A stretch of DNA of 64,000 nucleotides from Candidatus Aenigmatarchaeota archaeon (GCA_016187395.1 JACPJV010000039.1:5663-69662), one strand, 5' to 3'. Positions 7,253 through 31,390 are shown, counted from the first letter of the stretch. The notes: a model not told the origin generated them from the letters alone. Program-made: numbers and translations.

Positions 7253-7460
7253 AGCAGCAGGTCGTGAGTTCGATTCTCACCGGAGGCTTTGAGCAGGGAG
7301 TGCAAAGCCCCACCGACAGAGGCAAGAGGTTCGGGGTTCAAAGGATGAGCGTGGCGCATGTTTATCGGACAGATGTCAGGTATGCCCAGGCAGTGGCGCT
7401 CCTCAGGCGCGACCCGGCGGTTTCGTCCCGCGACAAGCAGATGATTTGCTCCGTATTATT

Positions 7461-16715: not shown

Positions 16716-16720
16716 GAAAC
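16700..16720. repeat. 21-bp direct repeat, left copy (TGGGCAGGCGCCTTAGGAAAC)
   Basis: Exact match to 20455-20475. Covers the last codons and stop of the giant gene, and the stop of the convergent protease gene. Confidence 0.9.
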
Positions 16721-18082
16721 TTGCTGAAGGATATTCGGATCTATAAAGAGTCCAATCGGTCCAATTTTGTCACAGAGATAACAAGGGGGCGGCAGAAATG
16801 CCACATATATTGTTACTGAATCTTCATCATGCCTCAATTGAGTAATGCTGATTCTGTTTATACGGTCGTAGAAAAGTGAACCGTCTGAGAGCGCCTCGTC
16901 GTAGGCGTATTTCTTTGTTTTCGGCGTGGCATCGATGAGCTTCGTCTTGCTTGCAGAAATGCCGTCCCAGACATGAATAAGAGTGCCTTCTGTGATTGCG
17001 TCACTCAAAAGGTCATCAAAGCCGATAGGCCGCCTATACTCTAGAAAATAATGCTCATTAGTATCGGGCTTTGCTATCTTTAACACCTGCGTTCCGAAAG
17101 CTTGCGCTTCCAAAGGAAAATAAATTGTATAAATGCCACTTTTTGCTATTTCCTGCACGCTTTCTGGGCTTATCCACCCGGCTGCAATCTTGTGCGGGGC
17201 ATTCAGGTGATGGTAGCGGTTTCCCATCACGTCGTAAGAATCACCTTGCTCTGAAAAAATGCAATTAGCATAGTCGTCTATAGCACGAAAGCCGCAATCC
17301 AGGCTTCCTGAATGGTGCAGGCTGAATGTGTGGCCGATTTCATGCGCATACAGCTGTTCCCAATTTTCGCCGTTAATCCAGATTTTTCTTGGCGGGTCCC
17401 CGCCAAGCTGCCCCCTTCCTGCCCAATTGCAAACCTCTGACGAAGGGAAGAAATATATCACTCTGTCATAATTATTGACATCATAATTATCCTTTGCCGC
17501 CAGTTCTTCGGCAGCCTGTGACCACAAGCCATAATCACAAGTGACATCATTGGTGTTGTCTATAGTGTACCATCCTATAACATCACCAGAAAGCGAAACT
17601 TTGCCGAAGGAATTTTCCTGAAAGAAATTGTTCGGCGAAAATGTACCCTCAAACAATGTATAATTTATCTGTTCTGCGAGGTAGGGCTTACGCTGGTCGT
17701 TGATGAAGTTAAACATGATTACAAGAACACGAAGATTGTTATCTGCTGGATCTGGCTCTGGCAAGCGAATTACAACAAGATTCTCACCATCCACTGAAAT
17801 CTGCTGCCCGCTAATTTTTCCTCTTATTCTGATAATAGAATCAGGAATTAGCAAAGGATCTCCCCTGAATACTAATCTGTAAAAATCACCTTCTCCAGAC
17901 TCTAAATAGTATGCGTTTTCGCTATGCTGGCTAATGAAGTCATCGCTGTGTATTATGATAACTCTGCCCTCGACTTCTGCTGTGTCATATTCTTGCAGCG
18001 CAAAGACCGTTTGATTTGGCACAGCAATCAGAGCTGCTATCAGCAAAAGCATGAATGCCACGCTTGCATATTTCCATTTCAT
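16712..18082 (-). CDS. secreted zinc metallopeptidase (HExxH...H)
   Basis: N-terminal signal or anchor (MKWKYASVAFMLLLIAALIAVP). Active-site motif YAHEIGHTFSLHHSG. ATG start at 18082. Confidence 0.75.
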   Translation of the reverse strand: MKWKYASVAFMLLLIAALIAVPNQTVFALQEYDTAEVEGRVIIIHSDDFISQHSENAYYLESGEGDFYRLVFRGDPLLIPDSIIRIRGKISGQQISVDGENLVVIRLPEPDPADNNLRVLVIMFNFINDQRKPYLAEQINYTLFEGTFSPNNFFQENSFGKVSLSGDVIGWYTIDNTNDVTCDYGLWSQAAEELAAKDNYDVNNYDRVIYFFPSSEVCNWAGRGQLGGDPPRKIWINGENWEQLYAHEIGHTFSLHHSGSLDCGFRAIDDYANCIFSEQGDSYDVMGNRYHHLNAPHKIAAGWISPESVQEIAKSGIYTIYFPLEAQAFGTQVLKIAKPDTNEHYFLEYRRPIGFDDLLSDAITEGTLIHVWDGISASKTKLIDATPKTKKYAYDEALSDGSLFYDRINRISITQLRHDEDSVTIYVAFLPPPCYLCDKIGPIGLFIDPNILQQVS

Positions 18083-18140
18083 GTTTATCAAAAAGGTATA
18101 ATAGGCAATACCTTAAATAACTTCCGCAAATCCATTATAT

Positions 18141-18914
18141 ATGAATTCAGAAGAGATGTCCAAGCTTCAGATGAGCCGAAGCCAGGGAGCGGCAATGATT
18201 CTTTCGCGACAACTAGCAAGCCAGATTGCTCGCGATATTTCGCGGATTGCCGATGACTACAGGCGTGGCGCAACCGGAGAAGAGATAGTAAAAAAACACC
18301 GCATAGATATAAGATATTGCAAGGGATCGGAAAGCATCGCGCTGTCTTCTGTCTATTTCGCGCTTGCAGAGCTTATGCCGGAAGGCGAGAGGCACAGGCT
18401 TGCATACGAACATACGGTTGATGCAGCCATGCCTGTTATCAGAAAACAGCAAGACGACGGCACAGGCATATACGGATTTACAAGCAAGCAGCATTCTGAG
18501 GCAGGAAGAAAAGGCGGCTCAAAATCAGGAAGAATAGTATACGAGCAAAAGCTCGGCATACACGGTCTTTCTCATGAGGAGAGATCTAAGATAGGAAAAA
18601 AAGCTGGGAAAATCGGAGGGAGTTCTGCGCGAAGAATGAGAAAGGGCATTCATTCTCTGACGCCTGAACAAAGAAGAGAAATTTCCAGGAAAGCTGTCGC
18701 TGCCCGCGGTTATGCGCCATTTTCCGATGAGGAAAAGACTTATTTTCTGGAGTTATGTGCGGATCCGGAATTTCAGTACGGGTCAGGACCAAACAAGGGA
18801 AGGCCTGAACATCCCCGGATAGCAAAAGGACTTGAGCAAAGGTTCGGTATAGACCGGTCAGGCTCTGACCTGGCTTCTATGAAGTGCAGACTTGAAAGGA
18901 GGAAAGGTGCTTAG
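18141..18914 (+). CDS. hypothetical DNA-binding-like protein with three NUMOD3-like repeats
   Basis: Repeats GIYGFTSKQHSEAGRKGGSKSG, GIHGLSHEERSKIGKKAGKIGG and GIHSLTPEQRREISRKAVAARG resemble the NUMOD3 motif of homing-endonuclease DNA-binding modules. No nuclease motif was seen. Confidence 0.45.
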   Translation: MNSEEMSKLQMSRSQGAAMILSRQLASQIARDISRIADDYRRGATGEEIVKKHRIDIRYCKGSESIALSSVYFALAELMPEGERHRLAYEHTVDAAMPVIRKQQDDGTGIYGFTSKQHSEAGRKGGSKSGRIVYEQKLGIHGLSHEERSKIGKKAGKIGGSSARRMRKGIHSLTPEQRREISRKAVAARGYAPFSDEEKTYFLELCADPEFQYGSGPNKGRPEHPRIAKGLEQRFGIDRSGSDLASMKCRLERRKGA

Positions 18915-18916
18915 AA

Positions 18917-18983
18917 ATGTACAACAAACAGCCTGCACTTTACTCCATCCGCGGCATCAACTGCAGCGGGGAGGGGCTGTGAA
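18917..18983 (+). repeat. junction repeat J (diverged copy)
   Basis: Reads in frame as ...QPALYSIRGINCSGEGL*, compared with ...ELVLYSIRGRNRNGEGR* in other copies. Ends directly against the stop of the ATPase gene at 18984. Confidence 0.7.
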
Positions 18984-20402
18984 TTATCGCTTCATGGCTT
19001 TCTCGATGTCTTTCAGGTCAAAGCAATATGCTTTCTTCCCTTCGACTTTTGTTATTCTCTTTCTGAATGACTTTGCAAAAACAGCATAGATTTCTTTTCT
19101 CCTGTCGTTGTGCCATTTCACGAGCTTGGCTTTCTCAATGAGGTTTGCGGCAATTTTTCCCGCATCTACGTTATCCTTCCACTTGCATTCGCAGAACAAG
19201 ATTTTCATCTTGTTTTCATCAAGCGCTACTATGTCTATTTCCCTGTCCTTGTGCCACCATCTGCCGATTTTTTCAAAGCCGAAGCCTGCCAGAACAGCCT
19301 TTTCCCTTATCAGATGCTCGACCAGCCTTTCGAACATAAACCCGGAATAATTCTGGAAATCCTTTTTGATTGCAGACAGGATTTCCCCCTCCCTGTACGC
19401 CTCCAGTTCTATCTTGTTCGGATAAACGTACCTGAACCAGAAATTGAAATAAGGATCGACAAGAAAATACAACCTCCTTCGGAATTTCGGCGAAGCAGTG
19501 ACAGGAATTTCCTCTCTTATTATTCCAATGTTTTTGAGCGTTTCGAGATACTTTGACACCATGCCTTTGTCCAATCCGGTATAATTGCATATTTCTGCTG
19601 ACGTTGTTTTTCCAAGCGCAATAGCCTTGAAAATGAGAACATAATTTTTGGGTTCTCTAAATTCATCTTTCAGCAGGAATTCCGCTTCCCTGTAAAGATA
19701 GCAGCCTTTTCTTATGAAATTTTTCCTTATATTCTGCCAGAATCCCAGCTTTGGATCGAATTTCAGGATGTATTCCGGTATCCCGCCGATAACGAACCAT
19801 ATTCTTGCCAGTTCTTCCATGCTGCAATGCGGGAAAAATTTTCTCATGCGAGCAAATAACAGCGGCTGAAGCTCCCATTGACCTGTTCTTCTGCCGTACA
19901 GGGGACTCCCATAACCGAGAACCTTTTCTTCCATCACGCTGACCGACGAGCCTGAAAGTATCAGCATAACGTTTTTGTTCTTCAGTATAAGCTCCCATAT
20001 TCTCTGAAATATCGAAGGGATTGATGGGTTGCTGTGTATCAGAAAAGGAAATTCGTCAATGGCAACAATTACTTTTGTTTTCCTTGCCAGTTCTGCAAAT
20101 GCTATATTTTTTGCCAAAGAGTCGAATAGAAAAAACCAGTCTCCGAATTCAGCTCTTGAAAAATTCTCATCATCGATAAGCTCGGACGCTTTTCTCTTGA
20201 AATTAGCTAAGTTTTCCTTATCGCCTTCTGAAGAGGCAAGAAAGTAAAGCCCTTTCCTTCCCCTGAGGAACTCCAGAATAAGCTCCGTTTTTCCCACGCG
20301 CCTTCGGCCATAAATCACAACAAGTTCTGACTTGCCGGATGAATGCATTCGTTTTAGAAATGCAAGCTCCTTCTCTCTGTTCACAAATTTTGGTTGAGTC
20401 AT
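18984..20402 (-). CDS. archaeal AAA+ ATPase with C-terminal DUF234/PD-(D/E)xK-like domain
   Basis: Walker A GRRRVGKT and Walker B IVAIDEF. The C-terminal IGRWWHKDREIDIVALD...ILFCECKW forms a D...ExK nuclease-like motif. Confidence 0.85.
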   Translation of the reverse strand: MTQPKFVNREKELAFLKRMHSSGKSELVVIYGRRRVGKTELILEFLRGRKGLYFLASSEGDKENLANFKRKASELIDDENFSRAEFGDWFFLFDSLAKNIAFAELARKTKVIVAIDEFPFLIHSNPSIPSIFQRIWELILKNKNVMLILSGSSVSVMEEKVLGYGSPLYGRRTGQWELQPLLFARMRKFFPHCSMEELARIWFVIGGIPEYILKFDPKLGFWQNIRKNFIRKGCYLYREAEFLLKDEFREPKNYVLIFKAIALGKTTSAEICNYTGLDKGMVSKYLETLKNIGIIREEIPVTASPKFRRRLYFLVDPYFNFWFRYVYPNKIELEAYREGEILSAIKKDFQNYSGFMFERLVEHLIREKAVLAGFGFEKIGRWWHKDREIDIVALDENKMKILFCECKWKDNVDAGKIAANLIEKAKLVKWHNDRRKEIYAVFAKSFRKRITKVEGKKAYCFDLKDIEKAMKR

Positions 20403-20425
20403 AAGTAGTATACTTTACTATCAAC

Positions 20426-20433
20426 TATTTAAA
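20426..20433 (-). promoter_or_regulatory. TATA box (TTTAAATA on minus strand)
   Basis: Lies 24 nt upstream of the ATG at 20402. The same CTTTAAATA box with the same spacing is found upstream of the 27351 and 25691 genes. Confidence 0.5.
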
Positions 20434-20437
20434 GCTT

Positions 20438-20452
20438 GGGAGGGGCGGTGAG
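20438..20452 (+). repeat. junction repeat J (terminal 15 nt only, GGGAGGGGCGGTGAG)
   Basis: Identical to the ends of the J copies at 25021-25035 and 28966-28980. Confidence 0.6.
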
Positions 20453-20454
20453 AT

Positions 20455-20475
20455 TGGGCAGGCGCCTTAGGAAAC
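20455..20475. repeat. 21-bp direct repeat, right copy
   Basis: Exact match to 16700-16720. Confidence 0.9.
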
Positions 20476-20516
20476 CTTTAAAACTTATCGGCTTCTAACT
20501 AATTAGGTTCGATTTC

Positions 20517-22139
20517 ATGACTCGCAAATTCCGCCACCTGGTGGGAACTGCTGCCTTGGGACTTGGCGCTCTTTTGTTCAGCACGGGCGCTGCTTCTGCA
20601 GAGGAACTGAAACAGGAAACAGGCGTACCACAAAAAACTGATGGCAGAGAATTCGAGACAAAGGACAACCACTATGATTTTGGCTGCTTCAACGGGAATT
20701 ACAGGGCAGATCCTGGCGAGCTGCGAAGAGGCTGCAATCATGTTATAAATCCCGGAAAGCTGGTGCGTGTAGAGCCTTCTCTGCCTCCTTTCAGCGAGAT
20801 TTTTCAGCACGAATGGACTTGCACGGCGACTCCAAACGACGGCAGGGTTTCCGGGCCCTCTGCTTCAGATACGCTATCGCCGGATGGATTCATTGACGCC
20901 CGTGTTGACGGCGAAAACGTTTTATTTAAAATAGTTGATCCTGACGGCATATGGAGGTATGGCGCGGATTATGGCGGCGATGGATCCATGGATAAGATGG
21001 AATGGGCAGCTGGCGCGAATGTCGTAGAAGATTCATTTATTTTAACCCCGACCTTTTCCGGAAAACATCCAGTGAAGATAGTTTATTGGGACATGGGATA
21101 CAGATCTAAAGAAAAAAATCTTGTTGTTCAGGCAGGAAACGGCGAAGATGCTGATTTGGCATCATTCTTTTCCTGGATGGAAAGCCACGGATACTCTCCA
21201 GAGATTACCCATGTTTACAGAAAGCATCTGGACCATCCTTTAGTCAGAAAACAACTGTACAGAGATTTTGACATCCGCGAAGGAGGAGGAAATGAAACCG
21301 TGCAATCCTACAGACAGGGCGGGACATTCACGATGGTGCTTCACGACGTATTTCCTACTGATGATGGAGCTACGTCAACTTCCATGGAGGGCGATATTCC
21401 GGCATTGGAGAAAATAGCAGAGAGGATTTTTGGAAGAGATTTCTCCTTTGAATACAAGCCTGAGGACATATCATATTCAGATCTTATTGGGCAAGTCCTT
21501 GAAGACTGCGTTGTACTGGATGGAAATAGGGTAAGGGAAACCTTGAATGCGATGGTAGATGATAGAACTAAAGGCCATGTATTTCATCTTGCAGCTGAAA
21601 CCCTTGAATGGGGCATTCCGGTATGCAGCTTTACAGGCTCTTCACCAGCTTTTAGCACAGAGGAACTGGATGACGGAGAGGATTATGTTGGGGGACTTTA
21701 TTTGCATGAATGGGGGCACGACATTGAACTGCACCATCATCTGGTGAACCAAGCATATCCCTTTACAAACAGCTTCTACGGCACGGATGATATAATGGTT
21801 CATGATTATATCGGCTATGGAAACAGGGAAACAGGCAGGCTGGGAGATCCTTTGACGTTATACGCGCTCGAAACAGCAGACGGGTATTCTCCGGAAACGA
21901 CAGCCAGATACAATGAAGCCATGGAAAACAGCTGGATGCTGGAAGATGCTTACTATGGTATAACGAATCGCCCTCCAACAATGCCAAAGGTTTCTATAAA
22001 CGCTGATAATAGCAGCCAATGCATAACCTGCAATGCTTTCGGCAGCTTTGACAGAAATGGAGATCCAATAACTTACACATATACGTGGTCTATTGACGGT
22101 CAGCAGATGCCTTATACAGATAATCGAATTTGCTGGTGA
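20517..22139 (+). CDS. secreted HExxH metallopeptidase-like protein with C-terminal PKD-like segment
   Basis: Signal peptide (GTAALGLGALLFSTGAASA), the motif LYLHEWGHDIELHHH, and a C-terminal FDRNGDPITYTYTWSIDG pattern. Confidence 0.65.
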   Translation: MTRKFRHLVGTAALGLGALLFSTGAASAEELKQETGVPQKTDGREFETKDNHYDFGCFNGNYRADPGELRRGCNHVINPGKLVRVEPSLPPFSEIFQHEWTCTATPNDGRVSGPSASDTLSPDGFIDARVDGENVLFKIVDPDGIWRYGADYGGDGSMDKMEWAAGANVVEDSFILTPTFSGKHPVKIVYWDMGYRSKEKNLVVQAGNGEDADLASFFSWMESHGYSPEITHVYRKHLDHPLVRKQLYRDFDIREGGGNETVQSYRQGGTFTMVLHDVFPTDDGATSTSMEGDIPALEKIAERIFGRDFSFEYKPEDISYSDLIGQVLEDCVVLDGNRVRETLNAMVDDRTKGHVFHLAAETLEWGIPVCSFTGSSPAFSTEELDDGEDYVGGLYLHEWGHDIELHHHLVNQAYPFTNSFYGTDDIMVHDYIGYGNRETGRLGDPLTLYALETADGYSPETTARYNEAMENSWMLEDAYYGITNRPPTMPKVSINADNSSQCITCNAFGSFDRNGDPITYTYTWSIDGQQMPYTDNRICW

Positions 22140-22195
22140 TGTCCTCCATATCCTTCGCTGGATAAAGCCAGCGGCTTCCCTGGGAGGACAGCATC

Positions 22196-22250
22196 GCAAA
22201 AGAAAGCCATATTATTCATCCTCTATCTAAAGATGGAGGCTTTCTTTTGC
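22196..22250. repeat. 13-bp-stem hairpin related to family F1 (possible bidirectional terminator)
   Basis: GCAAAAGAAAGCC...GGCTTTCTTTTGC followed by TTGTAATCAGG. The same TACAAGCAAAAGAAAGCC string occurs at 61725-61742. Lies between convergent genes. Confidence 0.5.
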
Positions 22251-22256
22251 TTGTAA

Positions 22257-23207
22257 TCAGGCAACTGAAAGTTCCCTGTAAATTTCCATATAGGGCTTTG
22301 AAATTCCTGGATCGTCAAATATTGCTTTCAATGAATCTACCAGCGTTTTTTCCAGTTTCATCCCGCTTTTTCTATTTTCAACTGCAAAATGAACCGCCTC
22401 CAAATCTTTTGCCAGCAACCCTGATACTTCTTCTTCGCTTAAACCCATGTCCATGCCGTCATAAATCTGGCTTGCGTCCCGGCGAGTTAAAATTATAATA
22501 CCTGAGCTTTGCGGCCTCAGCTGCACCACAGGCTTTCTTTTTCTGGCCCTTCCTGTTTCCCGGTTAAGTTTTGCAAAGAAATACCCGATTTTCTTTTCCG
22601 GCAGCCCTGTGAAATGAGAGACATCAGCAGGGCTAAGATCAGTCTGGTAAGCCCGCCTCAACATCCTTCGGGCATCATCAGGCAGGCTTTCCCATCTCCA
22701 GCTCAGAATATCCTCTCCACCCTCTTTTAGGATAATATCCCTGACCGTGGCGTGGTATCCAATCCCTGATTTTCTGGAAAGGTCACGGAGGGTGGTTTTT
22801 GCCCCCCTTTCTCTGGTTATTCGAACTTCTCTAAATAATTTTATCAAATTCTCTACTGGAATGTAACCATTATGATCAGACGCCTTTTCAGGCCTCCCCT
22901 GATCATACTCAATCGCCTTTCCATATTCCCATCCTTCCCTTTCTGCCAGTTCATAAAGTCTGTTTCTAAGAAGATTCAGGATGCATCTTTGTTCTTCTTG
23001 CAATTCTTCACCAGCTTTTCTTCTATTTGAGAGGTAAGCGTTTCTTGCTTTTGAATATCTTTCCTGCTGGCCGGTTCGCCTTATATATTTCCATACCCCC
23101 TGTCTTGTTTTTGGCCCTTCACCTATCCTTTCACATTCTCTTGCAATACCTAGTGGGGAAAGGCTGCCTTGTCTTAGCAAAGAGTCTACGTGCCTGTAAT
23201 GTTCCAT
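22257..23207 (-). CDS. hypothetical protein with several HTH-like segments
   Basis: Start moved to ATG 23207, because the first 44 codons of the track ORF are the antisense reading of a J repeat. A TATA-like TATTTAT lies about 25 nt upstream. Confidence 0.5.
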   Translation of the reverse strand: MEHYRHVDSLLRQGSLSPLGIARECERIGEGPKTRQGVWKYIRRTGQQERYSKARNAYLSNRRKAGEELQEEQRCILNLLRNRLYELAEREGWEYGKAIEYDQGRPEKASDHNGYIPVENLIKLFREVRITRERGAKTTLRDLSRKSGIGYHATVRDIILKEGGEDILSWRWESLPDDARRMLRRAYQTDLSPADVSHFTGLPEKKIGYFFAKLNRETGRARKRKPVVQLRPQSSGIIILTRRDASQIYDGMDMGLSEEEVSGLLAKDLEAVHFAVENRKSGMKLEKTLVDSLKAIFDDPGISKPYMEIYRELSVA

Positions 23208-23243
23208 AAATGTATGTAACAATAAATGATAAATAGTTTTAAT

Positions 23244-23307
23244 GCCGCCGACGGCAACGAACTTGTGCTTTATTCTGTGAGAGGCAGAAACTGCAACGGG
23301 GAGGGGC
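23244..23307 (+). repeat. junction repeat J (3' 64 nt)
   Basis: Reads AADGNELVLYSVRGRNCNGEGP*. Differs from other copies mainly by synonymous changes. Confidence 0.8.
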
Positions 23308-23317
23308 CTTAGGCAAA

Positions 23318-24616
23318 TCATTTTGCTGCCAGCAGCCACTTCCAGAGGGGGATGAATGTGATATTGTAACTTCTGCCTTTATGCTTCACTTTTCTGCCGC
23401 CTTCTTTCTCTTCTGTTATGACAAGCCCTTCCCTCAATTTGCATTTTTTCATGGCTTCTAACAGACCTTTGACCTCGCGCTCTTCATTCTCCTTTATCTG
23501 GTAGGAAACCTGTATAGCCGTAACCTTTCGCCCCTCCTTTACCAGAAAGTCGCATTCCTGCCTGCCTTTGAAATAATAGATTTCTTTCCCTCTGTTGAGC
23601 AATGAAAGAAAAACTAGGTTTTCATACAGTTTCCCTATGTTGTCCAAAAATCTGAAGCTTACTGTATTTATGAGGCCGGAATCAATCCCATAGACCTTTC
23701 TCGGATTCACTTCCTGCTCTTTCAGGGAATATGAAAATTTCGGGACGAAAAACACCAGGCAGGCATCTGTCATATACAGCGAGAACCTTTCTACACTGTC
23801 CAGACTCAAGCCCGCAAACCTGGCAATTCTTCTGTACGAGATGGGAGATGAAAAATTTGTCAGGTAGTATTTGGCCAACGCCTTGAGTTTTCCCGTGTTT
23901 CTTATTCTGCGGCGCTCTGCGATATCTCTTCCCACTATATCGTCAAAATACCTTTCAAGTATTTCCTTTTTTTCGCCCTTTAATGCAACGAGAGGAAAAC
24001 CGCCGTATTCCATGTATTCTCTCAGAAGCTGCTTAATCTGAATTTTTCTGGAAAGCAAATCAAGCTTGCCTCCCAGCCGCAGTCCCTTAAAACGAAGGAA
24101 TTCCCTGAAATCCAGCGGGTATATTCTCATATCTACCCACCTTCCTGTGAGCAGGGTTCCGAATTCTTTGCTGAGCAATTTGGAAGTGGAACCAGAAATT
24201 AAAATACGCGCTTCCTTCTTTTCATGCAAAGCCCTCACAAACTTTTCCCATTTCGGGATACTTTGTATCTCATCCAGCAAGATGTAGGGAATGCCTTTCG
24301 GCTTCACTATTTCCATATAAGACTCATAAATCTGCTGCAGAAATTCCAAAGAGAGCATATCTGCAAATTTTGGTTCTTCGAAGTTTACATACAAAAAAGA
24401 TGTTCTGCCTTCACCTCTGCCAATATGCCGTTTTATGAACTGTTTCATTAAAGTGGATTTCCCGCTCCTTCGCACACCTGTTATTGCAATAACCTGGTCT
24501 GTGCGCACGAGTCTGTCCAGCTTGCTCAGGTATTCTTCTCTGGATATTCCAGTTTCATGGTCATCTTCCCAGAAATTCCAGCCGCTTAATACCTCTACAA
24601 TTTTTTCATTTTCCAT
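23318..24616 (-). CDS. AAA+ ATPase, AAA_14/DUF4143 type (COG1373-like)
   Basis: Walker A GVRRSGKST and Walker B ILLDEIQ. C-terminal QECDFLV...AIQVSY block. A TATA (TTATATA) lies 22 nt upstream of the ATG. Confidence 0.85.
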   Translation of the reverse strand: MENEKIVEVLSGWNFWEDDHETGISREEYLSKLDRLVRTDQVIAITGVRRSGKSTLMKQFIKRHIGRGEGRTSFLYVNFEEPKFADMLSLEFLQQIYESYMEIVKPKGIPYILLDEIQSIPKWEKFVRALHEKKEARILISGSTSKLLSKEFGTLLTGRWVDMRIYPLDFREFLRFKGLRLGGKLDLLSRKIQIKQLLREYMEYGGFPLVALKGEKKEILERYFDDIVGRDIAERRRIRNTGKLKALAKYYLTNFSSPISYRRIARFAGLSLDSVERFSLYMTDACLVFFVPKFSYSLKEQEVNPRKVYGIDSGLINTVSFRFLDNIGKLYENLVFLSLLNRGKEIYYFKGRQECDFLVKEGRKVTAIQVSYQIKENEEREVKGLLEAMKKCKLREGLVITEEKEGGRKVKHKGRSYNITFIPLWKWLLAAK

Positions 24617-24673
24617 AGGAAAATAAGTTTATCAAAGTATATAAGCTTATCGGTCATTTTCATGCCTTTTTGA

Positions 24674-25034
24674 CCGACATATTTAATAGGATGCCCAGTC
24701 CAATGCCTCGAAGTCTGCCCGTGCGATGTTCTGCCCGGAGAGATGCAGAATCTTCGCGCCAGAAGAAACGGCCGCAATGTCGAATTGTACTGGCCTACCG
24801 AGCCGCTTTCACAGGAATATGGCATAGACAGGGAGGTGAACGCCACACGCGCATCTGCTGACCAGAGCTTCAACCCGGCACGCGTAAACACGACAAGCGG
24901 CTTACAGTATACGGATGCCGGCGTTGCCGGCGACGGCAACGAGCTTGTGCTTTATTCTGTTAGGGGCAGAAAGGCGAATGGACGTTTGCCGCAGCAAACG
25001 TCAGTCTGCACTTCGCAACGGGGAGGGGCGGTGA
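24674..25034 (+). pseudogene. 3' fragment of an Fn3-like surface-protein gene (longest J copy), disrupted by hairpin element E
   Basis: Open from the stop at 24671. Encodes ...LPGEMQNLRARRNGRNVELYWPTEPLSQEYGIDREVNATRASADQSFNPARVNTTSGLQYTDAGVAGDGNELVLYSVRG (Fn3-like pattern). A 45-nt insert then shifts the frame before the conserved NGEGR* end. Confidence 0.6.
24970..25014. repeat. hairpin element E (GGCGAATGGAC...GTCAGTCTGC)
   Basis: 45 nt replace the GAACT found at the same place in intact J copies. It forms a long imperfect hairpin around GTTTGCCGCAGCAAAC. Confidence 0.75.
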
Positions 25035-25442
25035 CTACTTCGGTTCTGAGAGTTCTTTGGTTGCATAAACTTTGATAATATTTTGCTCTTTCAGCTTCTT
25101 GTCATTTGACCATATTGCGCAGCGGAGTTTCAATGCGAGCGCGAAGTAATGGACATCATCGGGATCAGGACATACAGATTCAGCTTGTTCAAAATATTCT
25201 ATGAATTCGCTGGAAGGGACTGATGTTATACTCGCTCTTATCATGAGCTCGGTAAAAAGATCCCTAACCTTTTCTTCTGAAAGACCCGTTTTTTCAGTGA
25301 TGACGTCCAGATTGTTCATAAGTTCCTCAAAAAGAAATTCAGGGATGTAGAAAGTCCAGCTGCTGCTCAAAATGAGATGGCGCGTATGGCTGTCTCTTAT
25401 CAATGCTGCGAAAAGTACGTTCGCATCGAGAACAAGATCCAT
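25035..25442 (-). CDS. vapC: PIN-domain toxin
   Basis: The MDLVLDANVLFAAL N-terminus and conserved acidic residues. Paralog of 60709-61152. Confidence 0.85.
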   Translation of the reverse strand: MDLVLDANVLFAALIRDSHTRHLILSSSWTFYIPEFLFEELMNNLDVITEKTGLSEEKVRDLFTELMIRASITSVPSSEFIEYFEQAESVCPDPDDVHYFALALKLRCAIWSNDKKLKEQNIIKVYATKELSEPK

Positions 25443-25691
25443 TTATCTCATCTCTTTGTATCTTTTTGCCAGCGCCTTATTAACCTTTCTGCCGAGTTCA
25501 ATTGCGTCTTCTTCGGTCAGTTTGCTCTCTGCGAGAAGCCTATCCATCTTCTTTAAGAGAATGACCCTCTCCCGGATTGCCTGCCTAGCTACTTCTGACC
25601 AGTTTAGCTCAGGATGTCTGTCCATTTCTTCTTTCAGCTCTTCCGGTACAGACAGAGTTATGCTTACCACAAAATCACCTATCACGTTCAT
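25443..25691 (-). CDS. vapB: antitoxin partner of PIN toxin
   Basis: 82 aa, abuts the PIN gene. Shares SKLTEEDA-ELGRKVN---A-(R/K)Y with 60436-60699. TATA TTTAAATA lies 29 nt upstream. Confidence 0.75.
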   Translation of the reverse strand: MNVIGDFVVSITLSVPEELKEEMDRHPELNWSEVARQAIRERVILLKKMDRLLAESKLTEEDAIELGRKVNKALAKRYKEMR

Positions 25692-25742
25692 TGTGTTTAA
25701 TATGTTTAATACGTGAACATATTTAAAGGTTGCGTTTCAACT

Positions 25743-25859
25743 CAGTTAGAGGCAGGGAGGCGAATGGACTGCGAGTGAGTAGACACTTTCTGCAGAAAGT
25801 GTCATTTGCCTCCGCTGCAGGAATGTCAGTCTGCATTCTGCAGCGGAGAGGGGCGGTAG
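25743..25859 (+). repeat. junction repeat J (short) carrying nested hairpin element E
   Basis: CAGTTAGAGGCAG, then an 89-nt E insert (25756-25844), then GGAGAGGGGCGGTAG. Confidence 0.7.
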
Positions 25860-25865
25860 GCTGAT

Positions 25866-25964
25866 TATATAGCAAACCAACTTGCTATATGGCGTTTATT
25901 AAGTTGGTTTGCTATATGGGAAAGCACAAATGACATGTTCCGTTTCATTTGTGGTTTCACTATA
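25866..25964. repeat. family F1 hairpin modules (two)
   Basis: TATATAGCAAACCAAC...GTTGGTTTGCTATAT and GCACAAATGA...TCATTTGTGGTTTCACTATA. The last heptamer contains the stop codon of the ATPase gene. Confidence 0.8.
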
Positions 25965-27351
25965 GCTTCATCGCCTTCTCCAGATCTTTCAGGTCAAAGC
26001 AATATGCTTTCTTCCCTTCGACTTTTGTTATTCTCTTTCTGAATGACTTTGCAAAAACAGCATAGATTTCTTTTCTCCTGTCGTTGTGCCATTTTACATA
26101 TTTGGCTTTCTCGCTCAGCATGGAAGCAATTTTTTCAGCGTTTACACCGTCCTTCCACTTGCATTCGCAGAACAAGATTTTCATTTTGTTTTCATCAAGC
26201 GCTACTATGTCTATTTCCCTGTCCTTGTGCCACCATCTGCCAATTTTTGTGGTTTCCATGATATTGAGCCTGGGTACCAATGACGCGACGAATGATTCGA
26301 ATTTTCTGCCTACATATTCCCCGCTCCTTTTCTTTATTTCATCCAGAACGGCATCAACATCCCCTCTTTCCAGCTGTTGTTTATTGAGGTATACAAATCT
26401 GAGCCAGAAATCAAAAAAATTATCCTTTAAAGCATATGAACCTCTCGCCTTTAGCTTGCTTTTATAGCTCTCGGTGATTATTTTTCTTTTTTCCAGAATC
26501 CCGAGTTTTTCCAGAATGAAAAGATATTTTGAAAGAAGGCTTTTGTCCAATTGCGTTTTTGAATGAATTTCGCCGGATGTCGCAGCCCCACCGGCGATGG
26601 CGGAAATTATTGACATATAATTCGACGGGTCTCTCAGCTCTTCTCTCAGAAGAATTTCCACCTCCTCGTATAAAAATTCGCCTTTGCTTAGAATCCTTTC
26701 CCTTACATTTTTCCACAGGCCGATTTTCGGAGAAAACTTTACCAGGTAACCTGGAATCATATCAAGAAAGGAATATACGAAAACCAGTTCTTCCATGGCG
26801 TATCCGGGGAAAAATTCCTTCAGATAGGTCACGTCCAGCTTATCGACCTGCCACTGGCCGGTTCTCCTGCCGTACAGAGGGCTTCTGTAGCTCAGGGCAT
26901 ATTTTTCCATCATACTGACTGACGAGCCTGACAGTATCATCATGAGTTTCGTGCCTTTGAAAGCCGAATCCCATTTGTCCTGCAGAACTGATATTATTTC
27001 CGGTGATCTCTCAATCAGGAAAGGAAACTCGTCAAAAATCAGCACAAGCCTCGATGCCGCCTTTTCAGCGAGGTAATCGAATATGCCATCCCAGCTCAGC
27101 AAAGGGGAGGTAAGAAGCCTCGCGTCCCCGAAAAATTCTACCAGCAGGTTATTAAACCTTCGCAGCGTGTCAGATTTTGATTCTAAACGTCCCAGAAAAT
27201 ACAGCATATTCTTGCCTTCAGAAAAATGCATAAGCAACTCTGTCTTCCCTATCCTCCGCCGCCCGTAAAGTATGACAAGTTCCGCCTTTCCGGAGCGGTA
27301 TTTCCTATTCAGGAAATTTAGTTCGTCGTCTCTATCAAAAAAATGCATCAT
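25960..27351 (-). CDS. archaeal AAA+ ATPase with C-terminal DUF234/PD-(D/E)xK-like domain
   Basis: Walker A GRRRIGKT. Start moved to ATG 27351 (MMHFFDRDDE) by alignment with the paralog at 18984-20402 and by TATA spacing. The C-terminal about 95 aa are nearly identical to that paralog. Confidence 0.85.
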   Translation of the reverse strand: MMHFFDRDDELNFLNRKYRSGKAELVILYGRRRIGKTELLMHFSEGKNMLYFLGRLESKSDTLRRFNNLLVEFFGDARLLTSPLLSWDGIFDYLAEKAASRLVLIFDEFPFLIERSPEIISVLQDKWDSAFKGTKLMMILSGSSVSMMEKYALSYRSPLYGRRTGQWQVDKLDVTYLKEFFPGYAMEELVFVYSFLDMIPGYLVKFSPKIGLWKNVRERILSKGEFLYEEVEILLREELRDPSNYMSIISAIAGGAATSGEIHSKTQLDKSLLSKYLFILEKLGILEKRKIITESYKSKLKARGSYALKDNFFDFWLRFVYLNKQQLERGDVDAVLDEIKKRSGEYVGRKFESFVASLVPRLNIMETTKIGRWWHKDREIDIVALDENKMKILFCECKWKDGVNAEKIASMLSEKAKYVKWHNDRRKEIYAVFAKSFRKRITKVEGKKAYCFDLKDLEKAMKL

Positions 27352-27373
27352 GAGTATATACTTATACTTCAAC

Positions 27374-27381
27374 TATTTAAA
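27374..27381 (-). promoter_or_regulatory. TATA box (TTTAAATA on minus strand)
   Basis: Lies 23 nt upstream of ATG 27351. The surrounding sequence TCAACTATTTAAAG is shared with 20421-20434. Confidence 0.5.
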
Positions 27382-27395
27382 GTTTTGCTTGGAGG

Positions 27396-27540
27396 CGCAT
27401 CCGCAGACAGAAGATTCAACCCGGCGCGCGCAAACACGACAAGCGGGCTGAGCTATACTGACGCCGGCGTCGCCGCCGACGGCAACGAGCTTGTGCTTTA
27501 TTCTGTTAGGGGCAGGAACTGCAACGGGGAAGGGAATTAG
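27396..27540 (+). repeat. junction repeat J (145 nt)
   Basis: Reads ASADRRFNPARANTTSGLSYTDAGVAADGNELVLYSVRGRNCNGEGN*. Its stop overlaps the stop of the convergent ATPase gene. Confidence 0.85.
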
Positions 27541-28784
27541 GCAGCAAGCAACCATTTCCACAGAGGCATGAACTTCACCTTGGCTTTTATTCCGAACCAC
27601 TTTACCTGTTTTTGCGCTTCATAGTCCTCTGTTATGATAACCAGATTTCTGCATTTGAGTTCTTTCCCCGCTTTTACAAGCGCCCTGACTTCCCTGTTCC
27701 TCGTCTTTATATCGCTGACGTCGCAGCAGACCTGAATCAGCTGCTTTACCTTGATACCTTTCTTTACAACAAAGTCGACTTCCTCCTGCTGCGGATTTTT
27801 CCAGTAATAAATCCTTGCAATGCCGTTCATTTCACGCTTTTTGAGCTCGATTGCAACGGCATTTTCATACAGCCTTCCCGTATCAGGGCTCAGCCTGAAA
27901 GCTTTTGCATAGACAAATCCGTTGTCGATGCAGTATATTTTCTTGCTGAAAGCTATCTGCTCTTTTACCTTTGGTGAAAATCTTTCTATCCTGAAGAAAA
28001 TAAAGGCTTCTTCCAGATAGTTCAGGTACCTCTCCACTGTATGAACGCTTTTGCATTTCGCGATTTTGCTCAGCGTGTTGTAGGAAAACTCCCTTGCTAT
28101 ATTGGAAACAAGATAAGCGGCAAGGTCCTCAATAGCGCGTACAGACCTTATCCTGTATCTTTTCACTATGTCTTTAAAGATTATGGAGCTGAACAGGGTT
28201 GAGAGATAATCCATGTGATCCAGTTTTTTAACCAGAGGTTCCGGATAGCCGCCGTGAGTAATGTAAAAAACCAACCTTTCCTTTATTTCGCTTTTCGTCA
28301 ATTCCCTGTTCTCAAGCATGAGAAATTCCTGAAAAGAAAACGGGAAGATGTTTATAAGGGTGTGCCTGCCAGTCAGATGCGTCGCCATCTCCCTGCTGAG
28401 CAGCTTTGAATTGCTCCCGGTAATAACAAGATTGTACCCCTGCCTCTGCAGCCTGTTTGCAAACAGTTCCCACTTGTCTATATTCTGAATCTCATCGAGC
28501 AGAAGGCATTTCGGAGCCTTATATATAGAGTTTAGCGCATCGATTATTTCATCATAATTTTTCACTTCCACAAGTTTTTCGTCATCAAAATTGGCGTACC
28601 CAAAAACTCCAAATCTGTTCAGTGCATGGGTGGCAAAAAATGATTTACCTGACCTTCTCGGTCCTATAATCACCTTTATCATAGTGCTGTCCAAGTTTTT
28701 GATATTCACGTTTCTTTCTACATAGCTTTCTTGCAGCTTTTTTTCAAGCTCCCTTTTCTGAATAAGCAGTATATCCCTCAGCAT
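27537..28784 (-). CDS. AAA+ ATPase, AAA_14/DUF4143 type (COG1373-like)
   Basis: Walker A GPRRSGKS and Walker B LLLDEIQ. C-terminal EEVDFVV...LIQVCC. Shares the C-terminal PLWKWLLAA with 23318-24616. Confidence 0.85.
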   Translation of the reverse strand: MLRDILLIQKRELEKKLQESYVERNVNIKNLDSTMIKVIIGPRRSGKSFFATHALNRFGVFGYANFDDEKLVEVKNYDEIIDALNSIYKAPKCLLLDEIQNIDKWELFANRLQRQGYNLVITGSNSKLLSREMATHLTGRHTLINIFPFSFQEFLMLENRELTKSEIKERLVFYITHGGYPEPLVKKLDHMDYLSTLFSSIIFKDIVKRYRIRSVRAIEDLAAYLVSNIAREFSYNTLSKIAKCKSVHTVERYLNYLEEAFIFFRIERFSPKVKEQIAFSKKIYCIDNGFVYAKAFRLSPDTGRLYENAVAIELKKREMNGIARIYYWKNPQQEEVDFVVKKGIKVKQLIQVCCDVSDIKTRNREVRALVKAGKELKCRNLVIITEDYEAQKQVKWFGIKAKVKFMPLWKWLLAA

Positions 28785-28845
28785 GGTTTATCATAGTGCA
28801 CAAAAGTATATAAATTTATGCATTATGAATCTTATGCATCAGCAG

Positions 28846-28979
28846 ACAGGAGCTTCAACCCGGCACGTGTAAATACGACAAGCGGACTTACTTATACTGA
28901 TGCTGTTGTCGTAGCCGACGGCAACGAGCTTGTGCTTTATTCTATCCGCGGCAGGAACCGCAACGGGGAGGGGCGGTGA
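28846..28979 (+). repeat. junction repeat J (134 nt)
   Basis: Reads ASADRSFNPARVNTTSGLTYTDAVVVADGNELVLYSIRGRNRNGEGR*. Confidence 0.85.
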
Positions 28980-28983
28980 GGAT

Positions 28984-29080
28984 TATAGTCATGCAAGAAA
29001 GAAATTAGTATTATATTTTCTTGCTGACTATATGTGAACCAAATAGTATAATATCCTGATTATTTATTTGGTTCACTATA
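28984..29080. repeat. family F1 hairpin modules (two)
   Basis: TATAGTCATGCAAGAAA...TTTCTTGCTGACTATA, followed by TGTGAACCAAATA...TATTTGGTTCACTATA. Confidence 0.8.
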
Positions 29081-29112
29081 AGACAGATGTCTTGAAATTA
29101 GCGAAGCAAAGG

Positions 29113-29142
29113 TATATAAACTTGAGTTGATATATATCAACT
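29113..29142 (+). promoter_or_regulatory. TATA box plus 18-bp perfect palindrome (candidate operator)
   Basis: TATATAAA at 29113-29120. AGTTGATATATATCAACT at 29125-29142, between the TATA box and the ATG at 29152. Confidence 0.5.
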
Positions 29143-29151
29143 GTGGTTTAG

Positions 29152-29691
29152 ATGTATAAACTGAAGTTGACAATATTGCAGCAGGAAATACTGCGTTTTC
29201 TCTTCATGAATGCCGGGAAATCGTTTAATGCGCGGGCCGTAGCAATCGGCCTTGAGGTTAGCCAAACAGCCGTCGCAAAAGCACTGCCAACACTGGAAAA
29301 ACAGGGGTTTTTGCATGTTACGAAGGACAAGAAATCAAAAAGAACGTCGATTGAATTAAACAGGGAAAACCACGCTGTCATAGGCATGAAAAGAGCTGAC
29401 AACCTCAGGCAGATATACGAATCAGGGCTTGATGAGTTTCTACGGGAAAGATTTCCGGGCTGCACTATTATCCTATTTGGCAGCTTCGCCAAAGGAGAGG
29501 ATACGTACTTATCTGACATTGACATCGCTATAATCGGTGCCAAAGGCAAATCTCTTGACATGAGCAGTTTCGAAAAATCGCTTGCTAAAGAGATAAGGAT
29601 TAGTTTCTATGAGTCTTTCAGAAAAATAGGCGATGAGCTCAGGAATAATATTATTGGAGGGATTCTCTTATCAGGGTGGATTGAATTATGA
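29152..29691 (+). CDS. wHTH-fused minimal nucleotidyltransferase (MNT)
   Basis: N-terminal wHTH-like segment, then the NTase motif GSFAKGEDTYLSDIDIAI (G-S...D-x-D). Overlaps the downstream HEPN gene by 4 nt. Confidence 0.8.
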   Translation: MYKLKLTILQQEILRFLFMNAGKSFNARAVAIGLEVSQTAVAKALPTLEKQGFLHVTKDKKSKRTSIELNRENHAVIGMKRADNLRQIYESGLDEFLRERFPGCTIILFGSFAKGEDTYLSDIDIAIIGAKGKSLDMSSFEKSLAKEIRISFYESFRKIGDELRNNIIGGILLSGWIEL

Positions 29692-30137
29692 TGCCTCTCA
29701 AAACATTCCGCGAATATCTGGCTGAAGGCACTGCAAGGAGACAGTCCCCTGACAAACTCAGGGCCAGATCGCTTATTGCCGGATCTGAGGACTCCTATAA
29801 AGTCCTTCTTTCATTTGCCGAAAAGATGGGTCTGGACGACAGCAATGCGAACCACATCATCAAGAATGCTTACGACATAATCATGGAGCTTATACGGGCA
29901 AAGATGTTTTCAGACGGATTTGCCACGACAGGAAAGGGCGCGCATGAAGCTGAAGTTTCGTACATGGCTGAAATAGGCTTTAGCGGCAGGGATGTGGAAT
30001 TTGCAAACGACGTGCGCTATTTCAGAAATGGAATCATGTACTATGGGAAAAGGTTTGACAAAGAATATGCGGAAAAGGTTCTGGGATTTTTAAAAATGAT
30101 TTATCCTGCGCTGAAGAAAATGTGCGAGCAAAAATGA
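29688..30137 (+). CDS. HEPN-domain protein (partner of MNT)
   Basis: All-helical 149 aa. ATGA overlap with the MNT gene. The motif region reads DVRYFRNGIMYYG. Confidence 0.7.
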   Translation: MMPLKTFREYLAEGTARRQSPDKLRARSLIAGSEDSYKVLLSFAEKMGLDDSNANHIIKNAYDIIMELIRAKMFSDGFATTGKGAHEAEVSYMAEIGFSGRDVEFANDVRYFRNGIMYYGKRFDKEYAEKVLGFLKMIYPALKKMCEQK

Positions 30138-30230
30138 AAGAGGCAGGGAGGTGAATGGACTGACGAGTAATTAATATCAATATTTTCTCTCGTCAGTCAA
30201 TCTGCATCCTGCAGCTGGAAGGGGCGTTAG
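30138..30230 (+). repeat. junction repeat J (short) carrying hairpin element E
   Basis: AAAGAGGCAG, then the E insert (30147-30215, GGAGGTGAATGGACTGACGAG...CTCGTCAGTCAATCTGC), then GGAAGGGGCGTTAG. Its stop overlaps the HxlR gene stop. Confidence 0.7.
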
Positions 30231-30571
30231 AAGAGAGGGCACGCGGTGCATCTGCGGGTTTTGCAACCAAGATTCTCGTAATATGAAGTCCATTCTTTTA
30301 GTGCGTCAAGGATTTTTAGGAATTCCGTTCCTCTTTCCGTCAGATAATACTCTGAATTTTTGCTGCCGGGCTTTCTTGTCCTTTTCAGGATCCCTTCGTT
30401 TTCCATGTCCCTTAGTTTTTTTGAAAGTACTTTCGGACTTATCCTGCATGTGCGCTTTAGCGTGTTGAATCTAGAACCTTTGCTTAAATGAATCTCCTGT
30501 ATGATTCCAAGGCTTCGTTTGCTGCCTGCGATTCTGGCGGCACGAAAGACCGGGCACGTGAGATTTTTCAT
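30227..30571 (-). CDS. HxlR-family winged-helix transcriptional regulator
   Basis: CPV...I-GSKRSL-II-----G--RFN-L------IS-KVLS-KLRDME-EGIL-R pattern over 114 aa. Confidence 0.85.
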   Translation of the reverse strand: MKNLTCPVFRAARIAGSKRSLGIIQEIHLSKGSRFNTLKRTCRISPKVLSKKLRDMENEGILKRTRKPGSKNSEYYLTERGTEFLKILDALKEWTSYYENLGCKTRRCTACPLF

Positions 30572-30715
30572 TGCCTTAATTTTGATTGCAAAGCTTTAAT
30601 GTGAAACAAGGAATATGGCTAATTTCTACTGGGCCAACATTATCGAGTTTCGGTATCTTTTTGGTAACTACATTCGAACCGAAATCTTTATTTGCCGCTA
30701 TTTCTTAGTCTAAGC

Positions 30716-31390
30716 ATGATTCCGCTATTAGCTATGGGTAGGCATATTAACACAAAGCCTCACATAAGTTCTTACATTCTGGGAGCAGCTGTTCTGGTTA
30801 TCTTTATATCAGCGCTTGGCATATTTGATTACGCTATAACTGGTTTTGCCACGGCGACGCAGAGCACGGGTTCTAACGTAACTATTTCAGGGTATATCGC
30901 CATAGCGCTTTCCACAAACTTGAGCAGGGGAATAGAATTCGGCACGATAACCCTGCTGCCGGCGAACCAGACGAATGCAACGGCAAGCTACCAGAACTAT
31001 ACAGGCGGGGGAGGGCCTGGCGGAGGGCTGAATTATACCCTGTACAACGCTTCTGTCTCAACAGACTCAAACCAGAACGTGGACTTCTGCGTAAAAGGCA
31101 GCGGGCCTTTTGCGACCTCAGGAGGCGCCAATTCGTTCGCGCTGGCAAACCTGACGTGGTACGACAACAAAACAATAAACAACGACACGCACCCGCCAGG
31201 CGGGCCTTTCAGGGGCTTTTTCGGAATATCTGCGACTACGAGCTATGTGAAGGGAGAAGTTGCTGTCAGCGCAGGCAATGAGAACAACTACAGGTTCTGG
31301 CTCAACGTAAGCGGAGGGCAGGCAGCAGGCGATTACAATACAACAATATCGTTCCGCGGCACTACTGCCGGAGACGCGTGCGGGTCGTAA
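30716..31390 (+). CDS. secreted pilin-like glycoprotein A1
   Basis: N-terminal hydrophobic segment. Blocks ITGFATATQST, IALSTNLSRGIEFGTITLLPANQTNATA and YRFWLNVSGGQAAGDYNTTISFR. Conserved C-terminal GDACGS. Paralog of 32133-32798. Confidence 0.75.
   Translation: MIPLLAMGRHINTKPHISSYILGAAVLVIFISALGIFDYAITGFATATQSTGSNVTISGYIAIALSTNLSRGIEFGTITLLPANQTNATASYQNYTGGGGPGGGLNYTLYNASVSTDSNQNVDFCVKGSGPFATSGGANSFALANLTWYDNKTINNDTHPPGGPFRGFFGISATTSYVKGEVAVSAGNENNYRFWLNVSGGQAAGDYNTTISFRGTTAGDACGS

Follow-up and report, generated by a model that had tools for sequence, protein, structure and literature searches.

An array of small gene units separated by a recurring junction

The DNA analysed here is a 64,000-nt stretch (the window, throughout) from Candidatus Aenigmatarchaeota archaeon (GCA_016187395.1, JACPJV010000039.1:5663-69662), part of a 71-kb contig in a metagenome-assembled DPANN genome. 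Its positions 18917-30230 hold seven small units in a row, most of them with defence-type or toxin–antitoxin genes, and between each lies a copy of a junction sequence that we have termed J; a gene for an HxlR-type regulator, after the last copy, is the eighth unit. The cargo was assigned with Pfam and PADLOC models on the open reading frames (ORFs) of the window. Copies J1 to J8 and the units occur in the following order, where (+) and (−) refer to the strand.

18917-18983 (+): J1, a 67-nt fragment ending …LYSIRGINCSGEGL and a stop codon
18984-20437 (−): ATPase_2 + DUF234 ATPase #1 (PDC-S27), with a TATA-like promoter stretch
20438-20452 (+): J2, the 15-nt core only, GGGAGGGGCGGTGAG
20476-23243: a unit of two ORFs, encoding a 540-aa protein with the motif HEWGH (HExxH) and without Pfam match (20517-22139, +) and a product of about 330 aa without family match (22257-23243, −)
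23244-23312 (+): J3, ending …AADGNELVLYSVRGRNCNGEGP and a TAG stop (23310-23312)
23318-24691 (−): AAA_14 + DUF4143 ATPase #1 (PDC-S01) plus its promoter
24692-25034 (+): J4, a whole Fn3-like domain without the gene body, with a 40-nt hairpin insertion at about 24973-25012
25035-25742 (−): a PIN_2 toxin (25035-25442) and its 82-aa upstream partner (25443-25691)
25743-25859 (+): J5, reading …SVRGR, a 79-nt hairpin insertion (about 25759-25837), then CSGEGR and stop
25860-27396 (−): a 100-nt hairpin spacer and ATPase_2 + DUF234 ATPase #2
27397-27540 (+): J6, 48 codons including the stop, ending …GRNCNGEGN
27537-28835 (−): AAA_14 + DUF4143 ATPase #2 (PDC-S01), whose stop overlaps the J6 stop
28836-28979 (+): J7, 48 codons including the stop, ending …GRNRNGEGR
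28980-30137 (+): a hairpin spacer, a wHTH-MNT nucleotidyltransferase (29152-29691) and its 149-aa partner (29688-30137)
30138-30230 (+): J8, reading …RGR, a 59-nt hairpin insertion (about 30150-30208), then CSWKGR and stop
30227-30571 (−): the HxlR-type regulator, last unit, whose stop overlaps the J8 stop

The eight J copies, all on the plus strand, were identified by repeat finding, six-frame translation, nhmmer/blastn and tblastn searches. They are 15 to 343 nt long and 67–90% identical, and have in common the 3′ end, …GGGGAGGGGCGGTGA or a close variant; their 5′ starts differ widely. J4 keeps 343 nt (the whole domain), J6 and J7 keep 144 nt each, J3 69 and J1 67 nt, J5 and J8 a few codons, and J2 15 nt, which are identical to the equivalent stretch of J7 and match that of J4 at 14 of 15 positions. 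The core pattern of J gives five matches at no more than three mismatches in place of the 0.84 expected by chance, a count that none of 100 shuffles reached. A prediction made earlier from this stretch alone (the original prediction, hereafter) had listed the same eight copies. All are present, albeit with three coordinates amended: J3 extends to the TAG at 23310-23312, the J4 frame starts at about 24692 and J2 is the 15-nt core. As had been said there, the J stop abuts or overlaps the stop codon of the convergent gene to its right at four junctions, and does so exactly (18980-86, 25032-37, 27537-40 and 30227-30).

The two DUF4143 proteins match the PADLOC model PDC-S01 over its full length (E = 1e-118 for #1 and 2e-107 for #2), the two DUF234 proteins match PDC-S27 (E = 3e-58 for #1 and 1e-39 for #2) and the MNT nucleotidyltransferase matches PDC-M05A/S09, in agreement with the defence-type cargo originally proposed. 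By these matches, the DUF4143 and DUF234 ATPases are predicted phage-defence genes, both PDC-S01 and PDC-S27 being candidate systems in PADLOC. DUF4143 belongs to the PD-(D/E)XK family (PMC3424549). The gene content foreseen in the original prediction stands for the two DUF234 and two DUF4143 genes, the PIN and MNT genes (all by Pfam) and the HEWGH motif, and is not confirmed in three places: the presumed antitoxin, the “HEPN” partner of the MNT protein and the “HTH” protein (the ORF at 22257-23243) have no Pfam match, and the 149-aa MNT partner does not carry the Rx4-6H motif of HEPN proteins.

The two DUF234 genes are 90% identical over their 3′ 288 nt. Their homology begins exactly at the stop codon and extends through to the promoter. 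The two DUF4143 proteins are only 36% identical. Each of the minus-strand cargo genes keeps a TATA-like stretch, ending where the next J starts.

Segments spanning J junctions (24608-25557, 27486-29034 and 27890-29080) occur at 100% identity in independent Logan assemblies from other sequencing runs. The array is therefore real and not an assembly artefact.

J as the tail of a surface-protein gene

An exhaustive phmmer search with J4 against 1.84 billion representative proteins returned Fn3-like domains, foremost in a protein with 18 tandem matching domains (P0003; E = 4.5e-30) and in one with canonical fn3-like repeats (P0007; E = 2.3e-13). Pfam gives no match for J, which has the C-terminal strand pattern of the Fn3 type, …YTD…G…Y.V.A.N..G. 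The only close relative that this search found in public data (P0004; 55% identity) is encoded on L004, a contig of 532 bp. The frame runs open to the edge of this contig, reads …SAVIDSADGLAYFGT…, continues into the domain and ends RGRNCNGEGP before the stop. The repeat preceding the domain (“SAVID…AYFGT” type) is the one that fills a 2167-aa surface protein encoded by gene A in the window, upstream of the array. As P0004 both ends like J and carries the repeat of gene A, we regard J as the true 3′ end of a surface-protein gene that ends in an Fn3-like domain and belongs to the gene A family. The claim that J is a genuine gene end of this type, and that the longest copy (J4) retains a whole Fn3-like domain without the gene body, is thus borne out.

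A codon-aware comparison of J4, J6 and J7 over 41 codons yielded ratios of nonsynonymous to synonymous change (dN/dS) of 0.12–0.17, with dS at 0.5–0.8; 13–16 of the 20–26 differences per pair are at third codon positions. Purifying selection with mostly third-position differences had been proposed, and the ratios are indeed far from 1. Such low values indicate that the copies diverged in working genes of different lineages and were joined later.

Further searches for genes ending in J had the following outcome. In the window, tblastn with the J peptide returns the J copies only, and a word-indexed search of public sequences returned only small ORFs of this very contig. J has no match in the genome contig collection and one in the metagenome collection, an unrelated Fn3 domain (33% identity). 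A scan for surface-gene orthologues with the β-propeller-like repeat gave only distant proteins from bacteria and archaea, and J was absent from all of them.

A second duplicated gene end

To the left of the array, and overlapping its first units, is a duplication of another gene tail, that of gene A itself. Gene A ends …EAGQAP, not in J.

10212-16715 (+): gene A, encoding a 2167-aa glycosylation-rich surface protein with Laminin_G_3 and about 11 “SAVIDxxxGFAYFGT…KINLSDF” repeats
16700-16720 (+): A-core copy 1, the last 21 nt of gene A including the stop, TGGGCAGGCGCCTTAGGAAAC
16712-18091 (−): M11/reprolysin-like peptidase (Pfam scan)
18141-18914 (+): a 257-aa ORF without family match
20455-20475 (+): A-core copy 2, directly after J2

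The 21-nt A-core occurs in two exact copies, in place of 0.01 expected. The pair brackets a 3.7-kb block that comprises the peptidase gene, the 257-aa ORF, J1, the first DUF234 gene and J2. It looks like the trace of a second, more recent insertion at a different gene tail, and suggests that a composite circle already holding two J copies later entered at gene A's own tail. To the right of J8, there is no further copy of J or the A-core in the window.

DUF4143 cassettes in other archaea

DUF4143 #2 has thousands of homologues of about 70–75% identity in Altiarchaeales, Methanoperedens and others, many on contigs of 1.4–4 kb. The occurrence in distant archaea and the short contigs imply horizontal spread, with repeat-bounded or variable surroundings. 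Close DUF4143 relatives with useful context were not found on viral contigs, and mobility of these genes is not described in the literature searched that mentions DUF4143 or COG1373. We have examined four loci with DUF4143 homologues (L025, L024, L081 and L078), in three of which, from unrelated archaeal genomes, direct repeats flank the cargo.

L025, 13918-13996 and 15752-15830: radical SAM gene tail and its copy
L024, 6329-6736 and 11891-12292: FG-GAP surface-gene end and its copy
L081, 7596-7658 and 10984-11047: non-coding repeat

In the Methanoperedens-like locus L025, a 65-aa ORF and a DUF4143 gene follow a radical SAM gene of the AmmeMemoRadiSam type. Beyond this cargo is a 79-nt copy of the radical SAM tail (81% identity), which still reads VVDRTGFGVGAIKVKDGKYPECGEGVPIL up to the stop. 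The two copies were compared with 120 radical SAM orthologues and with DNA from L085, a relative of 94% identity. Among the orthologues, the closest have the ending …LIDRAGFRVSAIKIKDGKCPECGEGVPIV. Agreement of the intact L025 gene with these extends to CGEG, after which the gene has an odd tail, IAVVR; conversely, the displaced copy is unlike the orthologues in its left part and has a tail like theirs (GVPIL). In the DNA, the switch point is located inside CCGGAGTGCGG. Left of the switch, L085 agrees with the intact copy; of the 20 nt that follow on the right, it shares 19 with the displaced copy and 12 with the intact one. Beyond about 20 nt the assignment is less clear: L085 does not represent the direct ancestor, and only 80 nt of its contig remain beyond the radical SAM gene. 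In L085, moreover, a STAND NTPase gene upstream of purA takes the place of the TruD-DUF4143-purA order of L025. Judged from these comparisons, the flanking copies are reciprocal chimeras of resident and incoming sequence, as expected if a circle with a diverged gene tail beside its cargo had recombined with the chromosome in one crossover.

At L024, two DUF4143 genes enclose a 413-nt copy, 73% identical, of an FG-GAP surface-gene end. Over 136 codons, these gene-end copies have a dN/dS of 0.10, and four genes or gene fragments in a row end with the same ~40 nt. In the Altiarchaeales-like L081, a 64-nt direct repeat (87.5% identity) brackets a pair of DUF4143 and ATPase_2 genes beside HepT/MNT genes.

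The 9-mer GGGGARGGG has 15 occurrences on both strands of the 890 kb of fetched loci. It marks five J cores and the L025 crossover, and both targets encode …C-x-GEG… just before the stop. A universal attachment (att) core was considered and rejected: the repeats of L024 and L081 are unrelated to J, and GGGGARGGG is common to J and L025 only.

Proposed serial integration at a gene end

We think it probable, albeit with considerable room for doubt, that the array was formed by serial single-crossover (Campbell-type) integration of small circles at the 3′ end of an Fn3-ending surface gene. Each circle would carry one gene or gene pair with its own promoter, together with a portable, diverged copy (F) of the last 15–340 nt of the target. 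The crossover, which in the window we would place near GGGGAGGGG, the G-rich stretch that closes the frame ahead of the stop, would join the resident gene to a few 3′-terminal bases supplied by the circle, and the rest of F, rejoined to the resident tail, would end up beyond the cargo. Repeated events, one after the other, would stack cargo units between 5′-truncated tails that all have the same 3′ end, and each tail would owe its left part to the element on its left and its last bases to the element on its right. F would be repeatedly exchanged with, or re-templated on, functional host genes; copies would for that reason differ mainly at synonymous sites, with low dN/dS.

It follows from such a process that J variants should co-vary with the cargo on both sides, and the variants observed agree with this. 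J3 and J6, both of which precede DUF4143 genes, have a …TTAGGCA tail in common; J4 and J7, both of which follow DUF4143 genes, have their last 21 nt in common; J1 and J5, which both precede DUF234 genes, both contain TGCAGC. The first model of the original prediction, serial integration at a gene 3′ end with each element bringing a replacement end, gains independent support from the reciprocal chimeras of L025.

A number of observations speak against this reading. The co-variation rests on two pairs among very few copies. There is no intact J-ending parent gene to the left of J1, where gene A ends differently and two unrelated genes intervene. No circular form, empty site or polymorphism in cassette order was seen, the Logan contigs being identical to the window. 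In its present form, J2 (15 nt) does not offer enough length for homologous recombination, and J5 and J8 retain only slightly more of J. At the DUF4143 insertion at 8001-9260 of L025 and at L078, flanking repeats are not detectable, and the G-rich motif is absent from the direct repeats of L024 and L081. Moreover, as had been noted originally, no recombinase family was found among the window ORFs scanned with Pfam (most ORFs of at least 100 aa; the same set applies to the scans below).

The candidates for the enzyme are homologous recombination of the host, a recombinase encoded elsewhere and the cargo ATPase-nucleases themselves. A site-specific activity is suggested by the core, which every copy keeps and which is all that J2 consists of, and by GGGGARGGG at J cores and the L025 crossover. 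Recombination driven by homology is suggested by flanking repeats that are long, variable in length and specific to the locus, and by L024 and L081, which do not have the motif.

Alternative explanations

In a sub-case of the serial integration favoured above, the GGGGAGGGG…TGA core would be acted on in trans by a recombinase (a tyrosine or serine integrase, or an Xer-like enzyme) whose gene is elsewhere in the genome, on a virus or on a plasmid. This would make the J-flanked units non-autonomous elements, like cis-mobilisable elements (CIMEs) or cargo-only remnants of tycheposons. We see this as a minority possibility, worth taking seriously: the core is kept in all eight copies and the minimal copy is the core alone, the same rare motif is present at the L025 crossover, and the A-core repeat, 21 nt long and exact, resembles an att core. 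Against it, no integrase was found in the window ORFs scanned or in the homologous cassettes, the flanking repeats are entirely different between loci, and inverted binding arms around the core are not evident.

Alternatively, linear DNA from relatives, with the 3′ part of the surface gene and the sequence downstream of it, could have entered by homologous recombination in the surface gene on one side and an illegitimate join inside the resident tail on the other, leaving a 5′-truncated resident tail at each event, with no need for a circle or a dedicated enzyme. Variable 5′ truncation with intact 3′ ends, the tight abutment of J stops and convergent cargo stops, low dN/dS and the missing recombinase are all explained in this way. 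We nevertheless hold it to be unlikely, as it predicts a long foreign 3′ part in the intact gene and a wholly native fragment, while the displaced copy in L025 is foreign on the left and native-like over about 20 nt on the right. It also leaves unexplained the lone 15-nt core of J2 and a crossover at a shared rare motif, and the L081 repeat, which is non-coding and brackets the insert on both sides, argues against it.

Decidedly unlikely, though of consequence, is that the DUF4143 and DUF234 AAA+ ATPases with their PD-(D/E)XK-type nuclease domain are, instead of or besides defence genes, the mobility enzymes of unrecognised single-gene archaeal elements. Under the same assumption, the elements would circularise and insert at ends of conserved genes that contain GGRGARGGG, the tail copy would repair the gene, and toxin–antitoxin and regulator cassettes would be mobilised in trans. 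Half of the units in the window do not have an ATPase-nuclease, which weighs against the cargo ATPases in this role. If true, it would amount to a recombinase-free, integron-like capture system spreading between archaeal phyla.

The array had been called integron-like in the original prediction, which holds as a description and not for its machinery. Were it an integron-type array, a cluster of attC sites lacking an integron integrase (CALIN), J would be attC and IntI would be encoded elsewhere. One-gene units including toxin–antitoxin pairs fit such arrays, and archaeal integrons and CALINs have been described (Ghaly et al. 2022, PMC9668308). As the architecture of attC, we required imperfect inverted R″/L″…L′/R′ boxes (RYYYAAC…GTTRRRY), a hairpin fold and conservation at both ends. 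A regular-expression and pairing scan of the 64 kb gave four R″…R′ box pairs, none with adjacent pairing, and the plain J copies show no folding advantage over shuffles (z = +0.1 to −1.0). J varies at one end where attC is conserved at both, J is a coding sequence under purifying selection, and IntI or another Phage_integrase protein was not found among the ORFs scanned. We consider this origin highly improbable.

A transposon or casposon was ruled out: the flanking repeats are 15–343 nt and diverged, not of fixed length, and the units do not have terminal inverted repeats (end-to-end inverted alignments score 5–8 in all seven units, against shuffled means of 6.5–8.1). Cas1 casposase or another transposase was absent from the Pfam scans of window ORFs. 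Likewise, neither the units of the window nor the homologous cassettes of L024, L025, L078 and L081 encode a tyrosine or serine recombinase.

Tandem duplication in situ of a unit made up of gene tail and neighbour, with divergence and gene replacement afterwards, would account for two DUF234 units (with genes 90% identical over 288 nt) and two DUF4143 units, but has next to no probability, given that non-functional duplicates in place would show dN/dS of ~0.5–1 and not 0.12–0.17, that the cargo families are mutually unrelated and the DUF4143 proteins 36% identical, and that the same pattern occurs at other genes in other phyla.

Relation to known systems and significance

The array is best read as closest to the accretion of tycheposons or CIMEs, and not to an integron. 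Tycheposons and their like integrate serially at the 3′ ends of tRNA and tmRNA genes (Hackl et al., bioRxiv 10.1101/2020.12.28.424599). Here as there, successive integrations at the same site would push older elements outward, partial copies of the target 3′ end lie between elements, degenerate, cargo-only remnants occur, and the cargo includes defence and niche genes. Direct repeats of the target 3′ end are indeed present in the window; an intact target is absent from it and is seen at L025. Unlike in tycheposons, the target here is a protein-gene tail (at the other loci, other genes or non-coding DNA), the units are 0.7–2.8 kb with one or two genes, there is no tyrosine recombinase in the units or the window ORFs scanned, and the copies, diverged and of unequal length as they are, have no fixed att core.

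CIMEs and the elements ICESt1 and ICESt3 of Streptococcus thermophilus accrete in tandem at the 3′ end of fda. They resemble the present array in integrating at a protein-gene 3′ end with the frame restored, and in forming tandems of non-autonomous att-flanked elements. CIMEs arise in bacteria by decay of conjugative elements and are mobilised by a known integrase of an integrative and conjugative element (ICE), whereas here no known parent element or integrase exists and each unit has its own promoter and a defence-type gene.

Integrons and CALINs likewise form arrays of single-gene units, with many toxin–antitoxin and defence genes, and can occur without a nearby integrase; the junction here differs in being a coding fragment with one variable end, devoid of an attC hairpin with R/L boxes, and it comes without IntI and with cassettes that have promoters of their own. 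Casposons insert at the 3′ end of the aEF-2 gene or at tRNA genes, with a short target duplication of about 14–15 nt. They are similar to the present elements in being archaeal, in their 3′-end target and in the short duplicated target, which recalls J2. They differ in that Cas1, terminal inverted repeats and a family B polymerase are missing here, and in that the repeats are long and diverged and not fixed in length.

In Campbell-type integration, a circle enters by one homologous crossover, as suicide plasmids do, and the shared segment is directly duplicated around the insert. The two flanking copies are reciprocal chimeras, as in L025. To our knowledge, it is a laboratory tool or an occasional event and not the routine vehicle of a natural cassette family between archaeal phyla. 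DPANN archaea and Methanoperedens have few recognised mobile elements and strong gene flux. If the serial integration favoured above is correct, small tail-carrying cassettes without a visible integrase would explain how ~70% identical defence-type genes come to be in different archaeal phyla, how defence islands build up beside surface-protein genes, and why such genes often fall on short, broken contigs. Such insertions could be sought genome-wide by a simple bioinformatic marker: just beyond the inserted gene, a gene-tail copy that has diverged but is conserved at the protein level. This reading also raises a testable question, namely the actual role of the very abundant DUF4143 and DUF234 ATPase-nucleases.

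Hairpin insertions, palindromic spacers and neighbouring genes

The hairpin insertions in J4, J5 and J8 all occur at one identical codon, and taking out the 40, 79 or 59 nt restores …RGRx(C/R)x, followed by GEGR and stop in J4 and J5 or by WKGR and stop in J8. A small hairpin element with conserved ends, GGYGAATGGAC … GTCARTYTGCA, and a variable hairpin middle has five copies in the window, three of them in J4, J5 and J8 (24973-25010, 25759-25835 and 30150-30206) and those outside J at 6945-6980 (inside the D-loop intron of a tRNA-Thr gene) and 61831-61905 (intergenic). Considered as strict bulge-helix-bulge introns, the insertions of J4, J5 and J8 allow a 4-bp GCAG/CUGC helix that leaves 3 nt unpaired at both borders, a pairing that resembles a relaxed archaeal intron motif. 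The fit is incomplete: there is no adjoining inner helix, and the copies outside J do not fit. The insertion may be an mRNA intron, a mobile palindrome or part of a recombination site.

Hairpin spacers follow J5 (25860-25959, 100 nt) and J7 (28980-29150), and recur at 61940-62190. They are made of palindromes bounded by TATAG…CTATA, e.g., ATATAGCAAACCAACTT/AAGTTGGTTTGCTATAT and GTGAAACCACAAA/TTTGTGGTTTCAC, and may constitute a separate family of small palindromic repeats. Of this sequence, 77 nt at about 62113-62189 recur in inverted orientation at 1839-1915, with 97% identity.

The genes around the array are chromosomal and specify a P-type ATPase, a Csm6-like CARF-HEPN protein, a DinB-type polymerase, PCNA, a KaiC-like ATPase and several giant surface proteins. 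The tRNA-Thr(UGU) gene at 6912-7289 (+) is split by two long introns, the first of 130 nt in the D-loop (6927-7056) and the second of 173 nt at the canonical 37/38 position (7080-7252), with a CUUG/CAAG bulge-helix-bulge. In its genomic form the gene goes undetected by ARAGORN and Rfam; once the two introns are removed in silico, ARAGORN calls tRNA-Thr(tgt). Directly adjoining it is the gene for the CARF-HEPN protein, of Csm6/Csx1 type (5453-6901, −); cas genes or a CRISPR array are not evident in the window. Right after the array, four consecutive plus-strand ORFs of about 220–232 aa (30692-31390, 31404-32090, 32133-32798 and 32826-33521), none with a Pfam match, may form a tandem paralogue family.

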